Assembly (NCBI GenBank): GCA_965222345.1 | Contig: CBDCTS010000007.1 | Span: forward strand, 191,076 to 255,075 | Source of the DNA: Terriglobia bacterium | Lineage (GTDB): Bacteria; Acidobacteriota; Terriglobia; 2-12-FULL-54-10 | Length of the DNA stretch: 64,000 bases | Direction of reading: 5' to 3' | In this document: positions 24,967 to 38,299 of the stretch, in pieces | How positions within the stretch are numbered: the stretch's first letter is position 1 | Layout of the letters: each line of letters starts with the position of its first letter | The notes under the pieces: generated by a model | What the model was told of the DNA's origin: nothing | Seen by the model: only the letters and a program-made list of their open reading frames with translations | Database searches by the model: none | Program-made: the position numbers and the translations under genes

Positions 24967-27174
24967 CTAGGCTGCCAGAATCGGCAGCTCAATGACGAAC
25001 CGTGCTCCCACAGGCTGGTTCTCTTCCACCCGGATGACGCCTCCGTGCTCGGTGACGATCCGGCTGACGATTGCCAGTCCAAGACCCGTTCCGCGATCCT
25101 TGGTGGAGAAATAGGGCAAAAACAGTTTCTCTCTTTCCTCCAGCGTCACCCCCGGGCCGGTGTCCGAAATCATTACTTCCACAATCTCCCGCTGCGAATC
25201 GGTTCGCGTAGAAACCATCAGATGGCGCACCAGGGAGTCCTCCATCGCCTCGGCTGCATTGTCGATCAAATTGACAAAAACACGCCGGAAGTGGTTGGCA
25301 TCCACTTGAACCATAGGCAGGTCTGTAGCCAGGCTGGTCTGGATACTGATTCCATTCAGGCGTCCGTCGAACAGGCCGATAGCGCTTTTCACTATCTGGT
25401 TCAGGTCGGCCGGGGCCGGGTGCGCTTTGGGAAACTGGGCAAATTGGGAAAAGGTATCCACCAGATGCCTCAGATTTTCCACCTCTTGGTCGATCAGGGA
25501 ACAGGACTCCTGGATTACCTGGCTGAACTCCGGGGAGTTTTCCCTGGATTGAGGAGGCCGCTTCAGCCACAGGTTGATTCGCTCGGCTGAAAGCGCAATC
25601 GGCGTAAGCGGATTCTTGATCTCGTGGGCAATGCGCTGAGCCACTTCGCCCCATGCCGCCTCTTTCTGGGCCCGCAGCAGATCGCTCAGGTCCTCCAGTA
25701 CGACCACAAACCAGCTTGTGTCCGTCCCGTCCCGGCTGGAGCCGGGAGGCTCCCCGAGGGCTGCAACCGTGACGGCCAGTTGCCTGGCACGGCCATTGAG
25801 CTTGAGCTCCAACTGGCGCGACGCCTGCCCCACTCGCGCCGCCCGTTTCATGAGGTGGTTCAACTCCCGCATGTCCTCCGCAGAAAACAGCTTCGCCAGG
25901 TGGCTGGCCGACCCCGGGTCGCGGTCGAACAGACGGCGCGCGGCCGGGTTACTTCCGAGCACCGTCCCTTCCCTGGAAACGGAGATCACGCCCGTTGGAA
26001 TGCTCTCCAAAATCGCCTCCGTGAAGCGGCTTCTCTGGTCCAACTGCGTGTTCACCTGTTCCAGTTCTGCACGTCCCGCGGCGAGCTGTCCCGTCATCTC
26101 GTTGAATGACCGGACCAGAATACCCAGCTCGTCGGCGGCCTTTGCGCGCACACGGTGAAGCAGGTTGCCGCGCGAGACTTCACGGGTCGCTTCAGCAAGG
26201 GCCTGAATGGGAACCGTGACCTGGCGAGACAGGAAGAGGGCAAACCATGTGGCAATGAACAAAATCAGGAGCGTGAGAAGGAACAGGATGGAAATGTATG
26301 TCTGGCGAAGGGACTTTCGCTCCTGGCTGAGTTCTTCATAGAGGACGCTTTCCTGGCGCAAGCGGGCCGTGCTTTCCGAAAATTGCGCGGGCATCCCCAT
26401 CCCCACCACAATCACACCGGTCTCCTCCGCGCCGATCTGCAGGGGCGCCTGCGCCAGCACATAGCTCTGCGTGCCGAATTCGGCGAGCAGGGAACGAGCA
26501 CCTCCGCTTGCCGACTGCTCCCCGGTCGGAAATGCAGCGGACAGGTCCGGCAACTCCTGCCGCAAGTTGCGTTCCAGCAGCCGCTCTCCAGCCCCATTGA
26601 TCACCGCAAGATAATCAACTCCCTCGGGCGGGCGGAGCGTCTGAAATTTTTGTTCGAGCCCGCCCGGCTTATCCGTGCCGGCAGCCCCCGCCGTTTCCAA
26701 CTCCAACGCCAGCATCCTGGCATCCGCTTCGGCCCGTCTCCGGGCAAATTGCTCCAGCCCATCCACTATGGCGTTTGCCTCCAAACCGACCGCCTCCAGG
26801 GGACGGCTAAACCATTTGTCCAGGGTGCGGTTGATCAGACTATAGGAAAACAGGAACAGGAAGCAGACCGGCAACAGCGACAAACCCAGCGCACCGCACA
26901 CCATCTTCGTTTTGAACTTGGAACCCAGCTGGTTTGACCGCCGCTCGATATAAAGCTTCAGGATGCTTCGGAACAGAATGAATCCGAGGATCACCAGGCT
27001 AAGGAAAATGATGGTGGATAAAACGAACAGCAGAATCGTCTGCACGGAGTCGCTGGGGCTGATAAAGGGGAGGTTCAGCGACGTCAGTCCGAAAAGACTG
27101 ACCAGCAGCACCAACAGCACGATGCTTGCAGCAATGATGAAGCCCGGTCGCATCCTTAGGTCGGGCATCTTCAT
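24967..27174 (-). CDS. sensor histidine kinase (NtrY-like: TM-HAMP-PAS-HisKA-HATPase)
   Basis: N-terminal TM helices, HAMP, PAS region, H-box (RIAHEIKNPLTPI) and N/G boxes (DNAAEAM, DTGPGV, GTGLGLAIV). Lies directly upstream of the cognate regulator. Confidence 0.8.
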   Translation of the reverse strand: MKMPDLRMRPGFIIAASIVLLVLLVSLFGLTSLNLPFISPSDSVQTILLFVLSTIIFLSLVILGFILFRSILKLYIERRSNQLGSKFKTKMVCGALGLSLLPVCFLFLFSYSLINRTLDKWFSRPLEAVGLEANAIVDGLEQFARRRAEADARMLALELETAGAAGTDKPGGLEQKFQTLRPPEGVDYLAVINGAGERLLERNLRQELPDLSAAFPTGEQSASGGARSLLAEFGTQSYVLAQAPLQIGAEETGVIVVGMGMPAQFSESTARLRQESVLYEELSQERKSLRQTYISILFLLTLLILFIATWFALFLSRQVTVPIQALAEATREVSRGNLLHRVRAKAADELGILVRSFNEMTGQLAAGRAELEQVNTQLDQRSRFTEAILESIPTGVISVSREGTVLGSNPAARRLFDRDPGSASHLAKLFSAEDMRELNHLMKRAARVGQASRQLELKLNGRARQLAVTVAALGEPPGSSRDGTDTSWFVVVLEDLSDLLRAQKEAAWGEVAQRIAHEIKNPLTPIALSAERINLWLKRPPQSRENSPEFSQVIQESCSLIDQEVENLRHLVDTFSQFAQFPKAHPAPADLNQIVKSAIGLFDGRLNGISIQTSLATDLPMVQVDANHFRRVFVNLIDNAAEAMEDSLVRHLMVSTRTDSQREIVEVMISDTGPGVTLEEREKLFLPYFSTKDRGTGLGLAIVSRIVTEHGGVIRVEENQPVGARFVIELPILAA

Positions 27175-27308
27175 CCTCCTTCCGAACGGCAACCCAGTAT
27201 AGCATGGCGGCGGAAGCCGCCGGGAATGCGGCGGGTTCGGCAAACAACCGCAAAGAAGATGTCCCATCCCGGAGGCACTCTGCTATACTCCGGTTGCTCT
27301 GTAAACTG

Positions 27309-29186: not shown

Positions 29187-30587
29187 CTAGCTGAAATACC
29201 GCACGGTGGTGGCCACCAGGAAGGTTACCAGGAAGGCAAACGCGAGAGGCATCAGCGCTCCAACCGTCGTCCACTTGCGGCTGCGGGTTTCTTTCCATAT
29301 TGTCAAGATGGTGGTGGCACAGGGGCTGTGCAGAAGCGAGAACAGCATCAGGCAGACGGCCGTCAACAGCGTCCAGCCATGCTGGTCAATTAACAAGGTC
29401 CGCAACTGATCGAAGGATACAAGATCGGTCATCTGGCCGACGCCCATATAAACCATCAGCATCGTCGGCACCACAATCTCGTTGGCGGGAATCGCAATCA
29501 CATAAGCCAGCAGAATCACGCCGTCGAGGCCGAGCGCCAGCCCGAAGGGGTCCAGAAAGCTGGCGGCGTGCTGAGCCAGGTTCGTGCCGCCGACAGAGAT
29601 GTTGCCCAAAATCCAGATCACGCCCCCGGCAGGCGCCGCCGTCAGCATGGCCCTGCCCATGACGAAGATCGTGCGGTCGATTAACGAAGTGTAGAGAATG
29701 CGCAGGATGCTGGGACGCCGGTAGGGAGGCAGCTCCAGCGTGAAGGCGGATGCTTCCCCTTGAAGAACTGTGCGGGCCAGCAGCCACGACACAAACAATG
29801 TAAAGCCGACTCCGATCAGCACGATTGCCACCACGGCTCCGGCGGCGGCAACCGAGGCAAAGGCAGCCGGGACCGTGGTGGCAACGAAGATCGTGGCCAG
29901 CATGATGAGGGTGGGGTAGCGGCCGTTGCAGGGAACGAAGTTGTTCGTCAGGATCGCGATCAAACGCTCCCGGGGCGAGTCGATCACCCGTGCCGCGATC
30001 ACGCCGGCGGCGTTGCAGCCAAACCCCATAGCCATCGTCAGCGCTTGCTTGCCGTGCGCGCCTGCTTTGCGGAACAGCCAATCCAGGTTGAAGGCTACCC
30101 GGGGCAGATAACCCAGGTCCTCCAGAATCGTGAACATGGGGAAAAAGATGGCCATCGGCGGCAGCATGACGCTGACTACCCAGGCCAACCCTCGGAAAAC
30201 TCCATGCCACAGAAAACCGGAGACCCACCACGGCACGCCCCATCTCCCGAACAAGTCCGAGGCCTGAGCTTCCACCCAGAAAAACAGATTGGCCAGCGCC
30301 TGGGAGGGATAGTTGGCCCCAATGATGGTGATCCAGAAGATCACCGACAGCACCAGAAGCATTAAGGGGAGGCCGAAAATCGGAGAGGTGACGAGGCGAT
30401 CGATGCGCTGATCGAGGTCCCACTTGCTCTCGCCCCGGTGGCGCACCGCGCGCGCGGCGATGCGTTGCGCCTCCGAATACAGCGAGGCGACCATCTGATC
30501 CCGAAAGCCTTCTCCCAGATCGCGCCGCAGCTCGTCGGCGCGCACCAGCACAGAATGGGGGCCTGGTTCCAACGCTCGATCGCTCAT
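29187..30587 (-). CDS. feoB: ferrous iron transporter FeoB, membrane (C-terminal) portion
   Basis: Polytopic nucleoside-recognition/gate-motif domains typical of the FeoB membrane region. Start ATG overlaps the stop of the upstream G-domain ORF (ATGA). Confidence 0.8.
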   Translation of the reverse strand: MSDRALEPGPHSVLVRADELRRDLGEGFRDQMVASLYSEAQRIAARAVRHRGESKWDLDQRIDRLVTSPIFGLPLMLLVLSVIFWITIIGANYPSQALANLFFWVEAQASDLFGRWGVPWWVSGFLWHGVFRGLAWVVSVMLPPMAIFFPMFTILEDLGYLPRVAFNLDWLFRKAGAHGKQALTMAMGFGCNAAGVIAARVIDSPRERLIAILTNNFVPCNGRYPTLIMLATIFVATTVPAAFASVAAAGAVVAIVLIGVGFTLFVSWLLARTVLQGEASAFTLELPPYRRPSILRILYTSLIDRTIFVMGRAMLTAAPAGGVIWILGNISVGGTNLAQHAASFLDPFGLALGLDGVILLAYVIAIPANEIVVPTMLMVYMGVGQMTDLVSFDQLRTLLIDQHGWTLLTAVCLMLFSLLHSPCATTILTIWKETRSRKWTTVGALMPLAFAFLVTFLVATTVRYFS

Positions 30588-31348
30588 TGTGCTCCATGCA
30601 GGGAGACCAGGGAACTGGCCCTGTCGGCAGGGGCAGTCTGTGCCCTCTCCAATTGAGCCAGCTCTCCGTTGAGCAGCGCCTGACGCAGCCGGTAGTCTCC
30701 GTCCAGCAACCGGTAGGCGACCCAGCGGGCATTGGGAAAGCCGGGCACCAACGTTTCGATCAGCGGCACCAACTCCTCAACCGCGCGCTGAATGCGGGGA
30801 TGAGTCCCTGGCCGAAAAGGCTCCGTTGGGATCTCGCCCTGAATCACCCCGGCAATCGTGCGCACCAACTCTCCCAGGCCTTCTTTTGTGCGGGCCACGG
30901 TGGGGACGGCAGGAACTCCGAGGTCGCGGGACAGGCTCCTCACATCAATATCCAGGCCTTTCCGTTCTGCTTCATCCATGAGATTCACGCAGATGACAAC
31001 TCTTTCGGTGATCTCCAGCACCTGCAGCACAAGGTTCAGATTTCGCTCCAGGGCCGTAGCGTCTACTACGACGACGGTGCAGTCCGGCCGGCCGAACAGC
31101 AGGAAGTTCCGGCTGATCTCTTCGTCCTGGGAAGTGGAGAGCAGAGAGTAGGTGCCGGGCAGGTCCACCAGCTTGTAACGCACCCCGTCGTAAACGAAGC
31201 CGCCTTCGGCCCGCGTCACAGTCTTGCCGGGCCAGTTGCCGACGTGCTGTCGCAGGCCGGTCAGCGCGTTGAACACGGATGACTTGCCTGTATTCGGATT
31301 GCCCGCCAAGGCTACCAGCCGGTCATGTTTCAGGAGGCTGATTCCCAT
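30584..31348 (-). CDS. feoB: ferrous iron transporter FeoB, N-terminal G-protein and GDI domain portion
   Basis: G1 GNPNTGKSSVFNALTG, G3 DLPG and the helical GDI domain; start set at MGISLL, which removes the overlap with the upstream gene. Confidence 0.8.
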   Translation of the reverse strand: MGISLLKHDRLVALAGNPNTGKSSVFNALTGLRQHVGNWPGKTVTRAEGGFVYDGVRYKLVDLPGTYSLLSTSQDEEISRNFLLFGRPDCTVVVVDATALERNLNLVLQVLEITERVVICVNLMDEAERKGLDIDVRSLSRDLGVPAVPTVARTKEGLGELVRTIAGVIQGEIPTEPFRPGTHPRIQRAVEELVPLIETLVPGFPNARWVAYRLLDGDYRLRQALLNGELAQLERAQTAPADRASSLVSLHGAQ

Positions 31349-31410
31349 CTGGGCGAGCTGCGCGTTGGCGGGACATGCTTCGCAACTGCTGGCGGAAAAT
31401 GCCGGCGTCT

Positions 31411-32451
31411 TCATGCTGTCAACACTCCCGACTGCGAATCGTCCTGCGAGGGCCTCGAACCGGGCCGTACCCAAACGTGGGCAGCCTGATCCTTCCGCAA
31501 GGCGATCAAAGTTCCCCGAACGCGAAAGGCGCGCGGATCTCCAAACGGATTGGTCAGCTCAGGCTGTACCCACGCTTGCGGTGTCAGGCCGAGGTCCAGC
31601 AGCCGGCGGCGACCGTGTCCCCGGTACTGCGCGTCGATAACCACCACTTCAGCCTCCTCCCCTTCTCCTAAATCCACCAGCCGGACCAGGTTAGCCGGAC
31701 GCTCCGGCACTTTCGGCGCAGCAGTGACCTGGATGTTGGCGGCCAGAACCGGCGCCAGGCGGTGCTCCTGCTCGCCGTCACTGAGGATCAGCCCTTGCGG
31801 TCCACTCTCCAGGACGCGGATGATGCTGCCGGGGCGCAACCCCGTGGTCAGGATTTGCTTCAGGATCACCGCCGGCTCGTCCTCCACGTGGACGATCTGA
31901 GCCGTCTCGCCCGGCTGCCAATCGGTCAACGGCACACCTTCCATCGACGCCACCGAGGCGTCGGCGCCGGGGATTGGGTCGCCATGTGGGTCGAGCGCCG
32001 GGTGGCCCAACTGCGCTTCCAGGGCGTCCAGCCGTTCCGGAGTCAAGTGATGCTCGGCGCGCTCCGCGGCTCCGTGGAGCTGTTCCATGGGAACACCGGC
32101 TTCGTCAGCCAGATACCGCTCCCAAAGCCGGTGGGCTCGGACGACCTGCAATGCCCATCGTTCTCCTTCCGGGCTCAGATGCAGCCCGCCGCCAGCGGAA
32201 TGCAACACGCCGCGAGTTTCCATGTGCACAATCAGCTTTACCATACGTTTCTGCGACAAACCCAGGGCGCCGGCCAGCGATTCCAGGGTGCCGCACTGCC
32301 CGCGATGCTCAAAAGCCAGCAAATGCTTCAGGGCGTCCTCAAACAGCGCTCTCTCGCGAAGCTTCCGCCAGTTGCGAAATTTGGTCACGGCTTTCAGCCA
32401 CCAGCCCAAAACAACCACAACAAGAAGCCCTAACAAAATCCAAAGTGACAT
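31411..32451 (-). CDS. membrane-anchored DtxR-family metalloregulator fused to two FeoA (SH3-like) domains
   Basis: N-terminal TM helix (SLWILLGLLVVVVLGWWL). DtxR-type wHTH and dimerization region (VRAHRLWERYLADEAG...ERAEHHL...HGDPIP). Two FeoA-like segments (LTDWQPGETAQIVHV...IIRVLES and LVDLGEGEEAEVVVIDA...RVRGTLIALR). Confidence 0.65.
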   Translation of the reverse strand: MSLWILLGLLVVVVLGWWLKAVTKFRNWRKLRERALFEDALKHLLAFEHRGQCGTLESLAGALGLSQKRMVKLIVHMETRGVLHSAGGGLHLSPEGERWALQVVRAHRLWERYLADEAGVPMEQLHGAAERAEHHLTPERLDALEAQLGHPALDPHGDPIPGADASVASMEGVPLTDWQPGETAQIVHVEDEPAVILKQILTTGLRPGSIIRVLESGPQGLILSDGEQEHRLAPVLAANIQVTAAPKVPERPANLVRLVDLGEGEEAEVVVIDAQYRGHGRRRLLDLGLTPQAWVQPELTNPFGDPRAFRVRGTLIALRKDQAAHVWVRPGSRPSQDDSQSGVLTA

Positions 32452-32547
32452 ATCATCCCCGTAACACAGGTCCCTTATTTGGAATCACTGATTTGCGCAC
32501 CGGTTCACGCTGGTAAAAATATTTAATCTGCGTTAACATTACATTTT

Positions 32548-32565
32548 AATCTAACTATAGATTAC
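32548..32565. promoter_or_regulatory. palindromic iron-box-like operator (TAATCTA-ACTA-TAGATTA) in the divergent dtxR / feoA-fusion promoter region
   Basis: Perfect 7-bp inverted repeat arms with 4-bp spacer, resembling the DtxR/IdeR 19-bp iron-box consensus TTAGGTTAGSCTAACCTAA. Sits between two divergent DtxR-family genes and is flanked by 'ttacatttt' direct repeats. Confidence 0.4.
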
Positions 32566-32582
32566 ATTTTCTGTCAAGGCGG

Positions 32583-33248
32583 GTGAAGATGGCGACGATA
32601 GCGTCGGAGAACCTGTTAAAAGCAATTCTGGAGCTGAATGAGAACGGGGAAGAGGTGATCGCGGCGCGCCTGGCCGAGTTTCTCCAGATATCCTCAGCCG
32701 CGGTCAGCATGGCCTTGAAGCGATTACAGAAAAAAGGGCATGTGCGCGTTTCTCCCAAGCGCTCGATTCATCTGACCCCGGAAGGCTTTCGGAGCGCCTG
32801 CGACTTGGTGCGACGGCACCGGCTTGTGGAGCGATTGCTGACAGACATCCTCAAGATGCCTTGGGAGGGAGTCCACCAGGAGGCGGAAAAGTTGGAACAC
32901 GCCATCTCACCGGAGTTGGAAAAGCGGCTGCTGGAGATATTCGGCAAGAACGGAACATGCCCTCACGGGAGTCCTTTCACTCCTGCGCTGCATCCCAAGC
33001 GGAGACTGCGAGGCTTTCCCTTGGCCGAAGCCTCGGAAAACACCCGACTGCGGGTAGTCCGCATCGCCGAGCTTTATGAAAAGGAAACGGAATTCTTGAA
33101 CTCTCTGGCGGCAATGCGGCTGCTGCCCGGCTGCCAGCTCACACTTCTGCGCAAGACCTTCGACGGAGTCTTGGAATTGCGCGTCGGAGATCGCAAGACG
33201 GCTTTCTCGAACGAATCCGGCTCCCGCATCTGGGTAGAGAACGCCTAA
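32583..33248 (+). CDS. iron-dependent repressor, DtxR/IdeR family (cytoplasmic, with C-terminal SH3/FeoA-like domain)
   Basis: The wHTH region, the metal-site motif CPHGSP and a C-terminal SH3-like domain; 221 aa. Confidence 0.8.
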   Translation: MKMATIASENLLKAILELNENGEEVIAARLAEFLQISSAAVSMALKRLQKKGHVRVSPKRSIHLTPEGFRSACDLVRRHRLVERLLTDILKMPWEGVHQEAEKLEHAISPELEKRLLEIFGKNGTCPHGSPFTPALHPKRRLRGFPLAEASENTRLRVVRIAELYEKETEFLNSLAAMRLLPGCQLTLLRKTFDGVLELRVGDRKTAFSNESGSRIWVENA

Positions 33249-33276: not shown

Positions 33277-34728
33277 CTACAAATAGGGGGACAGCAGAAT
33301 GTGAATCATCGCGACCAAGATTGAGAATACGATCGTAGCGGTTGCGCCGACCCGAATCATATTCTTCATGTCAATTTCCCCGGTGGCGAAGGCCGTTCCC
33401 GCTGCCGCGCCCGCCCAGGGCAGCATGATTCCCAAAGCCACGTTGGGAATCAGCATGGCCATCGAGGCCGGGTTGAAACCGATTTCCTGAGCTGCCGGGA
33501 TCAAGATGCTCGCGAACAACGCGGTGGCAGCCGTTCCGGAGAGGAAGTTGGTGCTGAGCGCCACCAGCGGAGCGGAGACAAACGGCAACGAATAACGTCC
33601 CAGGCCCATCTCAGCCACCATACCCTTCGCCAACTCATCCAAGCCGAACTGGCGGAGAGCGGCGATCATGGCTACCGCGGCGGTGCACAGGATCATGATG
33701 CCCCAGGGGGAGTGCTCCACTGCCTCACGCCAACTCAGAACAAACTCACCCTTTTTCCAATTCACTGGTGTGGAGAACAAGAGCAGCATGACGGCAGGCG
33801 GCACCACCCAGATGGAGAGGGCCGTTCTAGCCCACACCGCAACCTGGTGTTCCGGACCCATCGTCAGATTGATGAGAGTCGGCAGGACGAACAGGAAGAC
33901 CATGGCCAGGAATACAAAAAGGGTGCTGCGTTCGCCTGGGGTGAGAGGACCCAGCTTCTCTTGTTCCCTTCGGATAAAATCCTCCCCGCCGGGAACACGA
34001 GAAATCTCCGGCTTCAGAAACAGGCGCAGGACAAAATAAAACGCGAGCAGGGTTGCCAGAAAAATCGGTATCCCGGCGCTCATCCAGTTGAAAAAGCTGA
34101 ACTGGCGTCCGGTTATTGTTTGCAGCAAGTCAACGCTCAGGGCATTGTGCGGAATCCCCATTATGGTGGCTGTACCACCGGCCGTGGCGCCGTACAGAGC
34201 CCCCAGCGCCAGGAAGGCTCCAAAATTACTCTTCACCGATTTGCTGGTTCCCGTAATGGTCCGAACGAATGAAGCCAGAGAGATTCCTACCGGAATCATC
34301 ATGGCCACCGTAGCAGCATCGGAAACCCACATGGAAAGGCACCCCGTCACCAGCATGAAGCCGAATGCCAGGCGATAGGTGCTGCCGCTCACCACGCGCA
34401 GGGACAAAAACCAAAGGGCAAATCGCTTGGCCAGCCCGTGGCGGTGCATGGCATAGCCCATCAGAACCGTTCCCATGATCCAGAAAAAAATGTTCTGCCC
34501 ATATAGGCTGACGGTGCTGCCAATGTTCATGAGACCAAAGCCCGGAAACAACAGCAACGGCAGAAGAGAAGTAATGGCCCAGGGGATCGGCTGGGTCATC
34601 CACCACATGACCACCCAGCCGAAAATTGCCAGCGCCACGCGGCCTTCCGGAGACGAGGCTTCATAGGGAAGGAAATACAGAACGAGGAAAGTAAGAGGTC
34701 CAGCGGCGAACTGCAGCAACAGCTTCAT
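33277..34728 (-). CDS. DASS/SLC13-family (ArsB/NhaD superfamily) anion permease
   Basis: 483-aa polytopic membrane protein; internal repeat with the motifs TQPIPWAITSLLP and a second-half hairpin typical of Na+/dicarboxylate-sulfate symporters. Confidence 0.6.
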   Translation of the reverse strand: MKLLLQFAAGPLTFLVLYFLPYEASSPEGRVALAIFGWVVMWWMTQPIPWAITSLLPLLLFPGFGLMNIGSTVSLYGQNIFFWIMGTVLMGYAMHRHGLAKRFALWFLSLRVVSGSTYRLAFGFMLVTGCLSMWVSDAATVAMMIPVGISLASFVRTITGTSKSVKSNFGAFLALGALYGATAGGTATIMGIPHNALSVDLLQTITGRQFSFFNWMSAGIPIFLATLLAFYFVLRLFLKPEISRVPGGEDFIRREQEKLGPLTPGERSTLFVFLAMVFLFVLPTLINLTMGPEHQVAVWARTALSIWVVPPAVMLLLFSTPVNWKKGEFVLSWREAVEHSPWGIMILCTAAVAMIAALRQFGLDELAKGMVAEMGLGRYSLPFVSAPLVALSTNFLSGTAATALFASILIPAAQEIGFNPASMAMLIPNVALGIMLPWAGAAAGTAFATGEIDMKNMIRVGATATIVFSILVAMIHILLSPYL

Positions 34729-35074: not shown

Positions 35075-38000
35075 TTAGAAGGTCAGCTTCAGGCCGAGCT
35101 GAATCTCGCGGGAGCTGTTGTTAAGGGTCTGGGTAATGGTGCCTGCCCGTCTGTCGACTCCCCTTCTGTTTCTAAAGACGCGGGCCGCCGGATTGCGGAG
35201 TTGAGCACGGTTGAACAGATTGAAGAACTCACTGCGGAACTGGAGGCGAGTGCGCTCTCCTAACTGGAAGCTCTTGCTGAGCGTGAAGTTGATATTTCGC
35301 AGGTCCGGCCCAAGCAGCAGGTTCCGCCCCGCTGTACCGATTCTACCCGGCTCAGGCGCGGTGAAGGCGCAGGGATCAAAATATTTGACGTTCGCCCCCG
35401 TATCGAAAGCATCAATAAGCGCTTGCCGATCTCCCACTGATCCAGCCACCACTCCCTGGCAGCCGGCAGTGCTGCCGCTGGTCAACTTATTCACGTCCAC
35501 TCCGGGATTCAGGTTGGGCCGGTTCGCACGGAACAGATAGCCCCTGTCACTGATGCGCGAACCGACGGAGAAGGGAAGACCTTGCTGGAGGGTCACAATG
35601 CCGCCGATCTGCCAACCACCCAAGATAGCGTCGGCAATGCCTCCGGTATTCATGTATGGCTTGCCCGAACCAAACGGCAGTTGGTAGATTCCATTGAACA
35701 CCAAGACGTGGGGTACGTTGTAGACGGAACGGGCCCGCTCCAGGGTGCGGTCCTGACCGTATGATCCCCTCGCCCCGGTCTCACCCGTAAAGTTGGTCTC
35801 CGACTGGGAATAGTCGTCGATGGATTTCGAAAAAGTGTAGCTCGCCTGGAAGGTCAGGCCGCGGCTAAACCGTTTCTGCAGGTTCACCGCCAAAGAGCTG
35901 TAGATCGAATTCACGTCGCTGGACATCCACTCGAGATTGTTGAAATGGGGATTGGGCCGCTGTGGGGCCTCCGAAGCAGGCGGGAAAAACAGCGCACCGT
36001 CCCGTTCTACAGGAATCGAGTGGCCATTATATAACGAGCGCCGGGCCATGTGGCGGCCAATTGCGCCCACATAGCCGATCCGCAGAGCCATTTCCCCCGG
36101 CAACTGCCGCTGCAAAGTCAGGTTGTACCGGTAGAACGTCGGCGTCTTGAAGTTTTCGAAATCAAAATGCCGGGTATTCCGAAATTTTACATTAGCATCC
36201 CGAATCGCCGCCTCAATGTCCGGGAAGTTCCCGGAGACATTGATATTGGGAGCAGTTGCCCGGAAATTGAAGGGGAGCTGGGACCGGAAAGAGACAAAGC
36301 TGTTGTGCAGGATCTGGTTGTGGAAGATTCCGAAGCCCCCACTCAGGGCGGTCATCTGATCCTGGCCGAGCGCCCAGTTGAATCCCAACCGGGGCTCGAA
36401 GTTTTTGATGTGATTTTGCCACAACTGACCTGGGATCAAATCGTCGAGTGTGGCCGTGTACACGTCAGCGCCCAAGTAGGTAACCTTATTGTTGACTTCA
36501 GTCATTCCCGTGGTGAACTCCCAGCGGAAGCCCAGGTTCAACGTCAGGCTGGGGCTCACTCGGTAGTCGTCCTGGGCAAAGAACGCCAACAAGACGGTCC
36601 GGACACCGCGGTTGGTGCTGGATTCAGGCAACCGATAAGTAGCGTTGGTACCCGAGGGTCCAGCCAGCAAAAAGGCCCGCAGATCGTCGAAGTCGTAGTC
36701 GCCTTGCCAGAACGCCGGGTTGTCGGTGTTCCATTGGAAGCGCTGCGCCATGGCCCCGAACTTTATGGTATGGGGACCGCTCGTGTAGGACAGGTTATTC
36801 TCAAACTGAAAGGAATTCTGGACGTCATCGACTATGCCGATTCCGTTCGGGCCCAAGTGGTCTAGGTTACCCGCGCTGAGCGTGCCCAGCGGAACGCCCG
36901 GCGCAAAGCCCAGCGATTCGGAGGCTCCCTCCACTTGCGTGGGTTGGACATCACCGATCGATCGGCTAAACCCCACCCGGAAGGTATTCAGCAGATTGGG
37001 GCCGAAGATGTGGTCTTCCTGAATCGTCAGAATTTGCTTGGAAGTAAACGAGGCTGAGCTGGAGAGCAACCGGGCGACCCGGGTGGCGTTTGCCCGGCTG
37101 ATGGTATAGCGGCCGAACAGGAAGTCGTTCTCAGAGATATGGTGGTCAATTCTCCCCGACAGGAAGTTTTCCGAGGTGGGCTGGCTTCGGTCCTCAATGA
37201 ACTGTCCAGTGCCATCGCCATTGTCAACTCCGTTCGGGAGCGGATAGAGATTGATGTAAGGAGGAATCCGCGGGTCCACTTCCTCGCCGGGACCCAAAAC
37301 TCCGATTCCTTGGCGTCCCTCCGCCGTGGGCACTCTCCACACGTTGGTATCGTTCAGGCGCTGCCGCAATCCCTCGTATCCCACGAAGAAGAAGGTCTGG
37401 TCTCGCCGGATGGGCCCACCGATGGTGGCCCCGAATTGGTTCCGTTTGAAGGGCGGCACCACATCATCCACGTCCTCTAACTGCGGCGCGTCCATCTTGT
37501 TGTTGCGAACGAACTCGAAGGCCGAGCCGTGCCACTCATTGGTTCCCGAGCGGCTGACGGCGTTGACGACGGCGCCGGCGTTGCGGCCGTACTCCGCTTT
37601 GCCGTTGGTGGTGACCACCTGAAATTCACGGATGGTGTCCACGCCCAACTGCACCCCGGCCGCGCTGCCTGGATTCTGGTTTCGAGTGTCCATCAGGTCG
37701 GTGCCGTCAAGCCGGAAACTGTTGGCATCCGTGCGGGCGCCGGCCACCGACAACTGCGGGGCGAAACCATAGTTGGCGCCCCTGCCCTGGCCAATGTGGG
37801 GCGTAACCGCTCCCGGGTTTAAGGTGACCAGGTCCGCAAAGCTGCGTCCGTTGAGCGGCAATTCCCGCAACTGCTCCTGGCTTACGTTCGTCGCGACCGA
37901 GGAGATGGTGGTCTCCACCACCGGGGCCTCGCCCGTCACCACCACTTCTTGCTCTACCGCACCGACCTGGAGGGTGAAATTCAGTGTCAGCTCCCGGCCA

Positions 38001-38299
38001 AACTCCAGGACGATTTCCTGGCGTACCTCGCGGTTAAAGCCGGCCATCGAAACCGTAATCTGATAGGTTCCCGGTTGCAGTTCCCCGACCCGGTAAAGCC
38101 CCGACGGACCGCTCTCTCTGGCGCGGGTAATTCCGGTTTCGACATTGGTGACAGTCACCTCGGCCCCCGCAATGACTGCTTCGGTGGCGTCCTGCACCAC
38201 GCCGACTATGGCGCTGCTGGAGATCTGGCCAAAGGTTGCCCTCGGCACGCCCAAACAGACCAACAATCCAACGATCAATACCCACTGAATCCTTTTCAT
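35075..38299 (-). CDS. TonB-dependent outer-membrane receptor with N-terminal carboxypeptidase-regulatory-like domain
   Basis: Signal peptide; CarboxypepD_reg-like beta-sandwich (VVGVVQDATEAVIAGAEVTVTNVETGITR...YQITVSMAGF); plug and 22-strand barrel regions; C-terminal aromatic residue (..LGLKLTF). 1074 aa. Confidence 0.85.
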   Translation of the reverse strand: MKRIQWVLIVGLLVCLGVPRATFGQISSSAIVGVVQDATEAVIAGAEVTVTNVETGITRARESGPSGLYRVGELQPGTYQITVSMAGFNREVRQEIVLEFGRELTLNFTLQVGAVEQEVVVTGEAPVVETTISSVATNVSQEQLRELPLNGRSFADLVTLNPGAVTPHIGQGRGANYGFAPQLSVAGARTDANSFRLDGTDLMDTRNQNPGSAAGVQLGVDTIREFQVVTTNGKAEYGRNAGAVVNAVSRSGTNEWHGSAFEFVRNNKMDAPQLEDVDDVVPPFKRNQFGATIGGPIRRDQTFFFVGYEGLRQRLNDTNVWRVPTAEGRQGIGVLGPGEEVDPRIPPYINLYPLPNGVDNGDGTGQFIEDRSQPTSENFLSGRIDHHISENDFLFGRYTISRANATRVARLLSSSASFTSKQILTIQEDHIFGPNLLNTFRVGFSRSIGDVQPTQVEGASESLGFAPGVPLGTLSAGNLDHLGPNGIGIVDDVQNSFQFENNLSYTSGPHTIKFGAMAQRFQWNTDNPAFWQGDYDFDDLRAFLLAGPSGTNATYRLPESSTNRGVRTVLLAFFAQDDYRVSPSLTLNLGFRWEFTTGMTEVNNKVTYLGADVYTATLDDLIPGQLWQNHIKNFEPRLGFNWALGQDQMTALSGGFGIFHNQILHNSFVSFRSQLPFNFRATAPNINVSGNFPDIEAAIRDANVKFRNTRHFDFENFKTPTFYRYNLTLQRQLPGEMALRIGYVGAIGRHMARRSLYNGHSIPVERDGALFFPPASEAPQRPNPHFNNLEWMSSDVNSIYSSLAVNLQKRFSRGLTFQASYTFSKSIDDYSQSETNFTGETGARGSYGQDRTLERARSVYNVPHVLVFNGIYQLPFGSGKPYMNTGGIADAILGGWQIGGIVTLQQGLPFSVGSRISDRGYLFRANRPNLNPGVDVNKLTSGSTAGCQGVVAGSVGDRQALIDAFDTGANVKYFDPCAFTAPEPGRIGTAGRNLLLGPDLRNINFTLSKSFQLGERTRLQFRSEFFNLFNRAQLRNPAARVFRNRRGVDRRAGTITQTLNNSSREIQLGLKLTF

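Follow-up and report, generated by a model that had tools for sequence, protein, structure and literature searches.

Feo is the most widespread bacterial Fe2+ uptake system. Gammaproteobacteria also have FeoC, a small winged-helix protein that partners NFeoB and may act in contacts with proteins and not in transcription. What FeoA does and how the FeoB G-domain is controlled have long been open questions (PMC8749426, PMC8980893). In Bacteroides fragilis FeoAB, FeoA is fused to FeoB and is held near the G-domain by a covalent linker, but the survey of FeoA-NFeoB fusions explicitly left out DtxR-FeoA fusions (PMC8980893). A protein of that kind, PgMntR (PG1044) of Porphyromonas gingivalis, was characterized in 2016 as the founding member of a "twin FeoA" DtxR subfamily; it is soluble, binds its own promoter DNA, and loses both DNA and Mn binding when its second FeoA domain, FeoA2, is deleted (PMC4805248). 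The word "transmembrane" does not occur in that paper, although its S1 Fig alignment includes, unremarked, homologues with hydrophobic N-termini (PMC4805248). Solved Mn(II)-sensing repressors, among them M. tuberculosis MntR (5zr4/5zr6), D. radiodurans DR2539 (8pvt/8pw0), ScaR, and SloR, are likewise soluble, have one SH3 domain, are not encoded first in a feoB operon, and keep DNA-contact residues such as Tyr12 of the EDYLK motif. A DNA-binding-type fold held on the inner membrane by a single helix is known from ToxR, CadC, and TcpP, in which an N-terminal cytoplasmic OmpR-type winged helix-turn-helix (wHTH) is followed by the transmembrane helix and then by a periplasmic sensor domain.

The 64-kb stretch of DNA analyzed here (the window) contains a feo operon whose first gene encodes a 346-aa protein, labelled FUS. 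Judged from its sequence, FUS is an anchored member of the PgMntR-like twin-FeoA branch, which is found in hundreds of bacterial species. Both proteins have, in order, an N-domain, a dimerization/metal domain, SH3/FeoA-1, and FeoA-2, both are encoded first in an operon with a FeoB homologue, and both have Asp at the Met10 position, an H-x-x-D-E motif in the first SH3-like domain, and a basic second FeoA domain; Cys108 of PgMntR corresponds to Glu130 of FUS. In contrast to PgMntR, in which the DNA-binding domain begins at residue 13 with no hydrophobic N-terminus and the HTH is recognized by the NCBI Conserved Domain Database, FUS has a membrane helix and basic linker (∼36 aa together) and an HTH without a match to PF01325; its gene is followed by a split FeoB and adjoins that of another DtxR, a soluble one. 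An earlier note on this DNA had taken the architecture to be undescribed. That is too broad, because PgMntR had already provided a twin-FeoA DtxR encoded first in a feoB operon, but within the literature library searched there was no report of a membrane-anchored DtxR/FeoA protein, and the anchor of this family appears never to have been discussed before.

The FUS gene and its predicted membrane anchor

The features of the operon are as follows.

31411..32451, minus strand: FUS gene, a 346-aa predicted membrane-anchored DtxR/MntR-like protein with an extra FeoA domain (ORF, Pfam, AF2, Foldseek)
32392..32448, minus strand: predicted transmembrane helix of FUS, residues ∼2-20, SLWILLGLLVVVVLGWWLK (Kyte-Doolittle, conservation, AF2)
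32344..32391, minus strand: basic juxtamembrane linker helix of FUS, residues 21-36, AVTKFRNWRKLRERAL (charge, conservation, PRK11050 alignment)
32173..32343, minus strand: DtxR N-domain of FUS, residues 37-93, comprising α1 (EDALKH, with primary-site ligand D39) and a diverged wHTH (AF2)
31969..32172, minus strand: dimerization and metal-binding domain of FUS, residues 94-161 (PF02742, conserved columns)
31723..31935, minus strand: SH3-like ancillary domain of the DtxR type (SH3-1), residues ∼173-243 (PF04023, 38.5 bits)
31462..31686, minus strand: extra C-terminal FeoA domain (FeoA-2), residues 256-330, motif RRRLLDLGLTP (PF04023, 56.5 bits)
30584..31414, minus strand: NFeoB gene, a stand-alone FeoB G-domain plus helical domain, 276 aa from the ATG at 31414 (PF02421, FeoB_Cyto)
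29187..30587, minus strand: gene for the permease (membrane) part of FeoB, 466 aa, with a 4-nt overlap with NFeoB (Gate twice, FeoB_C)

The FUS ORF is real and intact, and the ORF listing agrees with the 346 codons on the minus strand (31411-32451) given by the earlier note. From N- to C-terminus the protein comprises a membrane helix, a DtxR/MntR N-domain, the dimerization/metal-binding core, an SH3 domain, and the extra FeoA domain; Pfam finds PF02742 once and PF04023 twice, AF2 models a single compact protein (pLDDT 91.4, pTM 0.83), and the top Foldseek matches are MntR, IdeR, ScaR, and SloR. One could argue that the true start lies downstream, leaving no complete membrane helix, or that a frameshift has joined a regulator gene to feoA, and the automatic gene call in the near-identical P0001 does begin 11 codons downstream (335 aa). 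However, more than 100 homologues of 326-384 aa from many phyla share an identical architecture with the full helix, GGGGA precedes the FUS ATG at 32451, the reading frame runs on through a conserved linker from SH3-1 to FeoA-2, and the model is that of one compact protein. Such an artifact is thus exceedingly improbable and, given the conservation of the full-length form, effectively refuted.

The hydrophobic N-terminal helix that the earlier note had recognized (Kyte-Doolittle value of 2.6 over a 17-residue window) is kept in all 107 of 107 close homologues and is seen in 66 of 78 FUS-type loci of other genomes, which span Acidobacteriota, Chloroflexota, Ignavibacteriota, Bacteroidota, Gemmatimonadota, Verrucomicrobiota, and Calditrichota. 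In the close homologues, a short, slightly acidic tail (mean 4.6 residues) precedes the helix, while a net charge of about +5.8 flanks it on the C-terminal side, and AF2 gives an unbroken helix over residues 2-49 of FUS. FUS is therefore very probably membrane-anchored, with a predicted N-out/C-in topology that leaves about 1-5 residues outside the cytoplasm and every functional domain within it; the single helix is strongly predicted to hold the DtxR core, cytoplasmic and of the homodimer type, at the inner membrane. The earlier comparison with ToxR and CadC does not hold beyond the single-helix attachment of a DNA-binding-type fold, as FUS carries its anchor at the N-terminus, has next to nothing in the periplasm and no sensor domain there, would sense in the cytoplasm, and has a fold of the DtxR type.

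FeoB partners and the FeoA domain

Instead of a canonical FeoB, with G-domain, helical domain, and permease in one polypeptide, the window has two ORFs overlapping by 4 nt. NFeoB (PF02421 at 203 bits, a FeoB_Cyto match) covers positions 1-189 of the TIGR00437 profile and has a gene call of 276 aa in the near-identical L001, and the permease part covers positions 213-594. FeoB is split in this way in 45 of 66 homologous loci and fused in the other 21, and within the literature library searched there was no account of a split FeoB. The FUS stop codon shares 4 nt (ATGA) with the NFeoB ATG, so that, as the earlier note proposed, the gene heads the feoB operon, and tightly: FUS is strongly predicted to be translationally coupled to NFeoB, and NFeoB in turn to the permease. 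The arrangement is general, since all 74 loci that offer sufficient DNA have a FUS-type gene directly before feoB, with an overlap of 4 nt in 36 of the 74 and most others within ±17 nt. At least 70 genomes, from seven phyla, encode a FUS-type protein ahead of feoB, among at least 598 species matches. The idea that the anchor makes up for the split in FeoB is weakened by 18 loci in which FeoB is fused and the helix is kept, and replacement of a lost covalent link is consequently an insufficient explanation; three of the four family members without the helix (L054, L059, L074, L079) are paired with a fused FeoB.

Both C-terminal matches to PF04023 exceeded the cut-off of 23 bits when scanned separately, and in that sense the two tandem FeoA domains of the earlier note are present. 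The first, however, is the ordinary SH3-like domain that full-length DtxRs possess, the soluble neighbor included, so that one FeoA domain is extra. SH3-1 holds the invariant motif H188-x-x-D191-E192, in which D191 is the counterpart of Asp163 of DR2539 and the three residues correspond to H166/D169/E170 of PgMntR, whereas the PDB FeoA proteins 2k4y, 2k5f, 3e19, and 2k5l align to residues 257-328, i.e., to the basic domain FeoA-2. Conservation is 0.59 for FeoA-2 and 0.51 for SH3-1, compared with 0.41 for the SH3 domain of the soluble DtxR. Searching all stop-to-stop ORFs of the 64-kb window with phmmer (queries FeoA-2, SH3-1, and E. coli FeoA) returned the FUS gene and no other FeoA ORF, ruling out a separate small feoA elsewhere in the window. 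By these comparisons FeoA-2 is the sole bona fide FeoA in the operon. As the earlier note stated, then, FUS is not a small FeoA, the stand-alone cytosolic form having ∼75-85 aa and FUS being a multidomain, anchored protein of 346 aa, yet it supplies the FeoA domain.

Metal-binding core and winged helix

A DtxR-family metal-sensing core, which the earlier note also claimed, is evident: residues 94-161 match PF02742 (Fe_dep_repr_C) with 83.7 bits (cut-off 27), and this domain is present in 110 of 110 family members and in FUS includes the ligands H107, E111, H126, E130, E133, H134, D154, H156, and D158. The primary-site ligands, in the Mn(II)-type form, are Asp39, Glu130, Glu133, and His134, and the ancillary-site ligands are His107, Glu111, His126, Asp154, His156, and Asp158 together with Asp191 from the SH3 domain. 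This D39-D191 set is invariant or more than 90% conserved among 110 sequences and maps by alignment onto the metal sites of DR2539 and IdeR; the solved Mn(II)-sensing repressors named above, which are the best sequence and fold matches to FUS, share its primary and binuclear ancillary ligands, the SH3 Asp included. With Asp and Glu in place of Met10 and Cys102, the ligand set is by alignment a Mn(II)-type signature. Because the FeoB2 of the characterized relative is moreover a Mn transporter, the iron sensing ascribed to FUS by the earlier note is an assumption only.

The wHTH is less straightforward. That it is complete, as the earlier note had it, agrees with the AF2 model, which predicts the fold at pLDDT >90 (H56-63, H67-79, E83-86, E89-92), and with MntR, IdeR, and DR2539 alignments and Foldseek matches that span the N-terminal wHTH region; however, PF01325 (the DtxR HTH) gave no match in FUS, even at E≤10 on residues 1-100, and matched only 10 of 110 family members, all below threshold (best E = 0.0013). 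These results bear on the possibility that FUS is a tethered conventional metal-dependent repressor, in effect an anchored PgMntR whose metal-bound dimer shuts off its own operon. The predicted fold is consistent with such a repressor, as is the precedent of PgMntR, a promoter-binding protein that shares the domain order and operon position of FUS and requires FeoA2 for DNA and Mn binding; the failure to detect PF01325 counts against it. In DR2539 the residues just N-terminal of the primary-site Asp contact DNA phosphates, and in the AF2 model the equivalent segment of FUS is part of a continuous helix into the membrane; yet the FUS linker aligns, from residue 22, with N-terminal residues that PRK11050, the profile of E. 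coli-type MntR, has in front of α1, so a conventional MntR also extends there. We dropped the argument that an extension of α1 must clash with DNA, as PRK11050 is a real repressor family with such an extension. Nor is the loss of the DNA-contact Tyr of EDYLK, replaced by Ala in FUS, decisive, because PgMntR, also without the Tyr (SEDTLK), binds DNA.

In a conventional repressor the second FeoA domain of FUS would have only a structural or DNA-affinity role, as in PgMntR.

The soluble DtxR and the intergenic region

The gene divergent from FUS and the intergenic region contain the following features.

32583..33248, plus strand: divergent soluble DtxR/MntR-family regulator, 221 aa, with a recognizable HTH (PF01325, PF02742, PF04023)
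32521..32538, no strand assigned: candidate operator ATTTAATCTGCGTTAACA (11 of 12 arm positions of WTTTAR-N6-YTAAAW)
32547..32564, no strand assigned: palindrome with perfect 7-nt arms TAATCTA/TAGATTA and a 4-nt spacer (overlaps the −10 of the feo promoter-like site)
32522..32567, no strand assigned: two tandem 23-nt units, 74% identical, holding the candidate operator and the palindrome (repeat comparison)
32548..32577, minus strand: sigma-70-like feo promoter, TTGACA, 18-nt spacer, TAGATT, 10/12 matches (promoter scan)

The divergent gene is, as proposed earlier, a soluble DtxR, with HTH, dimerization, and SH3 domains all detected. The motif WTTTAR-N6-YTAAAW occurs upstream of 39 of 68 homologous cassettes, compared with 2.1±1.3 in shuffles; it was derived from the same loci as were counted, so that the match in the window alone is an independent test, and 32521-32538 is the only match at ≥11/12 in the 64 kb scanned. 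The earlier note had placed an iron-box-like operator at 32548-32565. There is indeed a perfect inverted repeat, but it lies at 32547-32564 and is unlike an IdeR/DtxR iron box, and the element that matches the cassette-wide motif is the adjoining 32521-32538. The promoter scan found one site where 0.4 were expected in shuffles. No riboswitch was found in the feo leader (Rfam at E≤1, 32350-32700), and comparison of the intergenic region with the only close relative, L001, was uninformative because the two are 100% identical there.

The recognition helices of the two proteins differ. In 35 genomes carrying both a FUS-type protein and a soluble DtxR, recognition-helix conservation was 0.37 (entropy 2.54 bits) for the former and 0.57 (1.66 bits) for the latter, while the dimerization domains were conserved alike (0.65 and 0.67). 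At operator-bearing loci the helix of the soluble DtxR is near-invariant (APASVTGMLRKLA), whereas that of the fusion is hypervariable and often acidic; mean net charge of α3 is −0.06±2.0 for the fusion and +1.19±1.0 for the soluble DtxR. Because it is the invariant helix that matches the conserved operator, it is doubtful that the fusion binds it, contrary to the earlier suggestion that the HTH of the fusion reads the operator. This divergence, the dedicated soluble DtxR adjoining 29 of 71 cassettes, the absence of another FeoA, and the translational coupling to NFeoB, the last two of which a conventional repressor would leave unexplained, together make that possibility unlikely. It is favored in turn by the occurrence of the motif upstream of many cassettes with no adjacent soluble DtxR, barring an unlinked one, and by the window FUS itself: there and in its close acidobacterial clade α3 is basic (+3) and partly conserved (LSQxRxxxLIxRME), and the window FUS may for this reason still bind DNA.

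Alternatively, FUS could be bifunctional, as the earlier note envisioned, both repressing the feo promoter from the membrane and serving as FeoA subunit, and coupling transporter assembly with transcription. Such a protein would account for the linkage to feoB, the sole FeoA, and the FeoA-2 score, and would draw on the DNA-binding precedent of PgMntR and the basic α3 of the window clade; on the other hand, the HTH has diverged, a dimer ∼16-20 helical residues from the bilayer and engaged on NFeoB/FeoB would need to catch chromosomal DNA as well, and the additional, soluble DtxR suggests that the two tasks are divided between proteins. We therefore consider this, too, improbable.

The reading that we prefer, and to which we give roughly an even chance, is that FUS is a membrane-resident, metal-sensing FeoA-type subunit of the Feo importer and that transcription is controlled mainly by a soluble DtxR. 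At the membrane, FeoA-2 would bind NFeoB, the G-protein, in the way that FeoA docks in other Feo systems; where FeoAB fuses FeoA to FeoB, FUS joins it to a metal sensor and an anchor, and closeness to the G-domain, again genome-encoded, would come from membrane co-localization and translational coupling. Metal occupancy of the DtxR core could shift the geometry of the dimer and so modulate its engagement with G-protein and permease, with the outcome that cytosolic Mn2+/Fe2+ would feed back post-translationally on uptake. Transcription of the operon would be mainly under a conventional soluble DtxR/MntR, here the divergent 221-aa protein, which would bind the operator region 32521-32564 overlapping the feo promoter and start site; in many relatives, a co-directional soluble DtxR directly upstream is a candidate for the same role. 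The winged helix of FUS is then probably a structural or protein-contact module and not an operator reader.

A further step, which we put forward tentatively and regard as possible but somewhat doubtful, is that a DtxR/MntR repressor has become a DNA-binding-dead, membrane-resident allosteric subunit of Feo in at least seven phyla, its dimer switching a separate G-protein on or off through the FeoA domain in response to cytosolic Mn2+/Fe2+. The relic winged helix would perhaps help in a FeoC-like manner, the likeness to FeoC being one of analogy only. If true, this would constitute direct product feedback on Feo and would assign to FeoA a definite function, that of coupling a metal sensor to the FeoB GTPase. 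Because sensor, adaptor, GTPase, and permease are distinct and genetically separable parts in the FUS system, the questions of FeoA function and G-domain regulation become directly testable in it. These "Feo" systems may import Mn2+ rather than Fe2+. The FUS-type proteins form a large group whose automatic annotation reads "DtxR family Mn-dependent transcriptional regulator" or "FeoA domain-containing protein", and it may be that they do not act as transcription factors at all.

The anchored fusion protein and its relatives

We found that the first gene of the feo operon encodes a real, conserved and widely distributed protein that belongs to the twin-FeoA DtxR subfamily, as its anchored form. 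The genes concerned are as follows.

31411-32451, minus strand: fusion ORF, 346 aa
31414-30584, minus strand: NFeoB, a 276-aa FeoB G-domain plus helical-domain protein, its ATG overlapping the fusion stop codon
30587-29187, minus strand: FeoB permease, 466 aa, with a 4-nt overlap with the NFeoB gene
32583-33248, plus strand: soluble DtxR, start at 32583, 221 aa, complete (PF01325, PF02742 and FeoA/SH3), divergent from feo

The Pfam search bore out the Fe_dep_repr_C (residues 94-161, 83.7 bits) and FeoA domains that the earlier note had read in the fusion, the latter in two stretches, but no HTH family rose above noise in residues 1-100. Scanned singly, residues 169-248 and 250-346 scored 38.5 and 56.5 bits for FeoA (cut-off, 23 bits). 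Among NCBIfam models, nearly the entire Thermus-type MntR aligns with residues 38-244 and the E. coli-type MntR with residues 22-146, both scoring below the equivalog cut-off; by sequence, M. tuberculosis MntR, D. radiodurans DR2539 and IdeR are the top matches in the PDB, and genuine FeoA structures match residues ~257-328 only. The AlphaFold2 model (110-sequence alignment; pLDDT 91.4, pTM 0.83) has a single unbroken helix at residues 2-49, a winged helix (H56-63, H67-79, hairpin 83-92), dimerisation helices at 94-147 and two SH3 barrels (183-244 and 267-330), and Foldseek groups it with MntR, IdeR, ScaR, SloR and DR2539. Together, these results give the order transmembrane helix, basic linker, full-length DtxR/MntR (N-domain, dimerisation domain, SH3) and one extra C-terminal FeoA (FeoA-2).

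The N-terminal transmembrane helix, also proposed in the earlier note, held up across the family. Of the 120 best database homologues (53-97% identity, 326-384 aa), nearly all start with a hydrophobic stretch, then an Arg-rich segment and an EDALKH motif. In the 110-sequence alignment, the 17-residue Kyte-Doolittle maximum is at least 1.7 in all 107 scorable members (mean 2.35); a mean of 4.6 residues with net charge -0.6 precedes the helix and a mean of 20.6 residues with net charge +5.8 follows it, a positive-inside pattern that, as judged from sequence, is that of an N-out/C-in anchor and not of a signal peptide. The fusion is thus strongly predicted to be membrane-anchored with a cytoplasmic body, a topology on which the suggested analogy to ToxR and CadC fails. 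Of 78 fusion ORFs in loci taken from species-representative genomes, 66 have the helix, and those without it are mostly cut by contig ends or frameshifts; the true helix-less members, with in-frame stops upstream, are those of loci L054, L059, L074 and L079, two of them from Verrucomicrobiota and three adjoined by an unsplit FeoB. In a 97%-identical homologue (P0001; L001:7968-9008), the automatic gene call starts 11 codons late, giving 335 aa and halving the helix; among the sequences compared, it is the long form that is conserved. Start-site errors of this kind may leave the anchor unnoticed in database entries.

The protein most closely related to the fusion is PgMntR, the twin-FeoA DtxR of Porphyromonas gingivalis, which binds Mn(II) and Fe(II) as well as its own promoter; removal of its FeoA2 (pI 11.36) abolishes binding of both DNA and Mn (PMC4805248). 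Because its DNA-binding domain begins at residue 13, PgMntR lacks an anchor; the homologues in S1 Fig of the same paper from Formosa, Melioribacter, Capnocytophaga, Cytophaga, Ignavibacterium, Thermophagus, Roseiflexus and Anaerolinea have plainly hydrophobic N-termini, and a transmembrane segment is never mentioned (PMC4805248). To call the architecture undescribed was therefore an overstatement, the subfamily being known, although the fusion system differs from PgMntR in its anchor, diverged HTH, split FeoB and accompanying soluble DtxR. The sole remark in a 2022 survey of Feo evolution is that "FeoA has an additional domain" in some cases, and DtxR-FeoA fusions were deliberately excluded from the data of the FeoAB-fusion survey (PMC8980893).

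Distribution and linkage to a split FeoB

When one genome was scanned for each species, at least 598 encoded relatives of the fusion, and the 80 loci retrieved, cultured Maribacter and Melioribacter species among them, cover seven phyla (Acidobacteriota, Chloroflexota, Ignavibacteriota, Bacteroidota, Gemmatimonadota, Verrucomicrobiota and Calditrichota); that the fusion is an artefact is, given this conservation, extremely improbable. In every locus with enough DNA, feoB lies directly downstream, the two genes overlapping by 4 nt in 36 of 74 loci and meeting within about ±17 nt in most of the rest. Of 66 homologous loci, 45, from several phyla, have FeoB split into G-protein and permease, and the other 21 have it as one polypeptide; the break coincides exactly with the NFeoB/membrane boundary, as also seen in L003, L004, L006 and L007, among others. 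Because 45 homologous loci share it, the split in the window is a conserved state. A frameshift as its source is ruled out by the same conservation, and gene calls in the homologues agree. The literature searched gave nothing relevant on a membrane-anchored DtxR/FeoA and no description of a split FeoB.

Comparison of L002:6949-8348 with L003:6949-8346 shows that on one of these two contigs, both of which carry an identical fusion protein, the FeoB permease gene is in three ORFs (375, 172 and 95 aa), either through an assembly or frameshift error or as a pseudogene. Beside the feo operon of the window lies a HAMP-PAS histidine kinase (24967-27267, minus strand); its L001 counterpart (L001:13251-16861) is followed, across two ABC permease genes, by a sigma-54 response regulator.

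The winged helix, the soluble DtxR and the operator

PF01325 matches 10 of the 110 family members, all below threshold. In the 35 genomes where a soluble DtxR is encoded next to the fusion, the recognition helix (alpha3) is relaxed in the fusion (mean top-residue frequency 0.37, entropy 2.54 bits) as compared to the soluble protein (0.57, 1.66 bits), whereas the dimerisation domains are equally conserved (0.65 and 0.67). Side by side, the soluble proteins carry APASVTGMLRKLA, or xAAxTDMxKKLS in Bacteroidota and Ignavibacteriota, and the fusions vary from LSQKRMVKLIVHM to QNDKMVIDSIDNM or ISADEAAKVVKKL; mean alpha3 net charge is -0.06±2.0 in the fusion and +1.19±1.0 in the soluble DtxR. However, alpha3 is basic (+3) and partly conserved in the window fusion and its acidobacterial clade, and PgMntR binds DNA though it too lacks the Tyr of EDYLK (PMC4805248). 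These two points would suit a conventional repressor tethered to the membrane, which we consider unlikely beside so relaxed a helix, and equally a truly bifunctional protein, which we likewise doubt.

Upstream of the cassettes (fusion plus feoB loci), palindromes of the pattern AATTTAGGC-N2-GCCTAAATT appear repeatedly. Written as the motif WTTTAR-N6-YTAAAW and required to match at 11 or more of its 12 arm positions, this conserved 18-20-bp palindrome (e.g., AATTTAGGCAAGCCTAAATT) lies upstream of 39 of 68 cassettes in different phyla, among loci L003-L081, as compared to 2.1±1.3 of 68 in shuffles and 0.013 per 210 nt elsewhere in the loci; the motif was derived from the loci in which it was counted, so that the only independent test is the 64-kb window, where it matches exactly once, in the feo/dtxR intergenic region (32521-32538). 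It usually stands 30-45 nt before the first start codon of the cassette. The palindrome that the earlier note had placed between feo and dtxR exists (TAATCTA-N4-TAGATTA), but its true position is 32547-32564; of the two units of a 23-nt tandem repeat, the first contains the conserved-type site and the second is this palindrome, which overlaps the -10 of a feo promoter-like site (TTGACA-18-TAGATT). Both sites thus stand where they could repress.

WTTTAR-N6-YTAAAW is probably the operator of an MntR-like soluble regulator. Considered along with helix conservation in the soluble DtxR, it points to that protein as the putative reader, a role that we infer only, because many operator-bearing cassettes have no soluble DtxR adjacent. 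The soluble gene adjoins 29 of 71 cassettes, usually co-directional and a few bases upstream; it is divergent in the window and L001. The soluble DtxR of the window, which shares only ~33% identity with its counterparts in other cassettes, has ENLLK for EDYLK and TCPHGSPFT for DPHGDPIP, and may belong to another DtxR lineage that replaced the usual partner. Adjoining its gene, and ordered as they are in L001, are a DASS/SLC13-type transporter (Na_sulph_symp/CitMHS; 33277-34728, minus strand) and a 1074-aa CarboxypepD_reg TonB-dependent receptor (35075-38299, minus strand).

Metal ligands and a possible role for FeoA-2

Metal ligands of DR2539 and the corresponding residues of the fusion, mapped by pairwise alignments with PDB sequences and the ligand lists of the DR2539 paper
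Primary site: DR2539 Asp11, Glu102, Glu105, His106; fusion D39, E130, E133, H134
Binuclear ancillary site: DR2539 His79, Glu83, His98, Asp126, His128, Asp130; fusion H107, E111, H126, D154, H156, D158
SH3 ligand: DR2539 Asp163; fusion D191

All mapped ligands of the fusion are invariant or more than 90% conserved among the 110 sequences. Asp and Glu in place of IdeR/DtxR Met10 and Cys102 are reportedly a Mn(II)-responsive signature (Guedon and Helmann, 2003, a paper cited in PMC8516115), and since the fusion has this pair, the metal of the window system may be Mn2+ rather than Fe2+. The FeoB2 partner of PgMntR is a Mn2+ transporter (PMC4805248).

One could envision FeoA-2 as the FeoA of the system, in contact with free NFeoB, with metal occupancy of the DtxR core modulating that contact as a post-translational feedback and most transcriptional control exerted by the soluble DtxR; we give this reading as a whole an even chance. 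No FeoA-like ORF other than the fusion was found anywhere in the 64-kb window. With sensor, FeoA, G-protein and permease as separate parts, these loci offer specialists in Feo and metallostasis a natural system.

An unfused cassette occurs in Actinomycetospora chlora (L076:5974-9252), with a 239-aa DtxR, a separate 79-aa FeoA, NFeoB and FeoB permease, and may represent the state before or after fusion.
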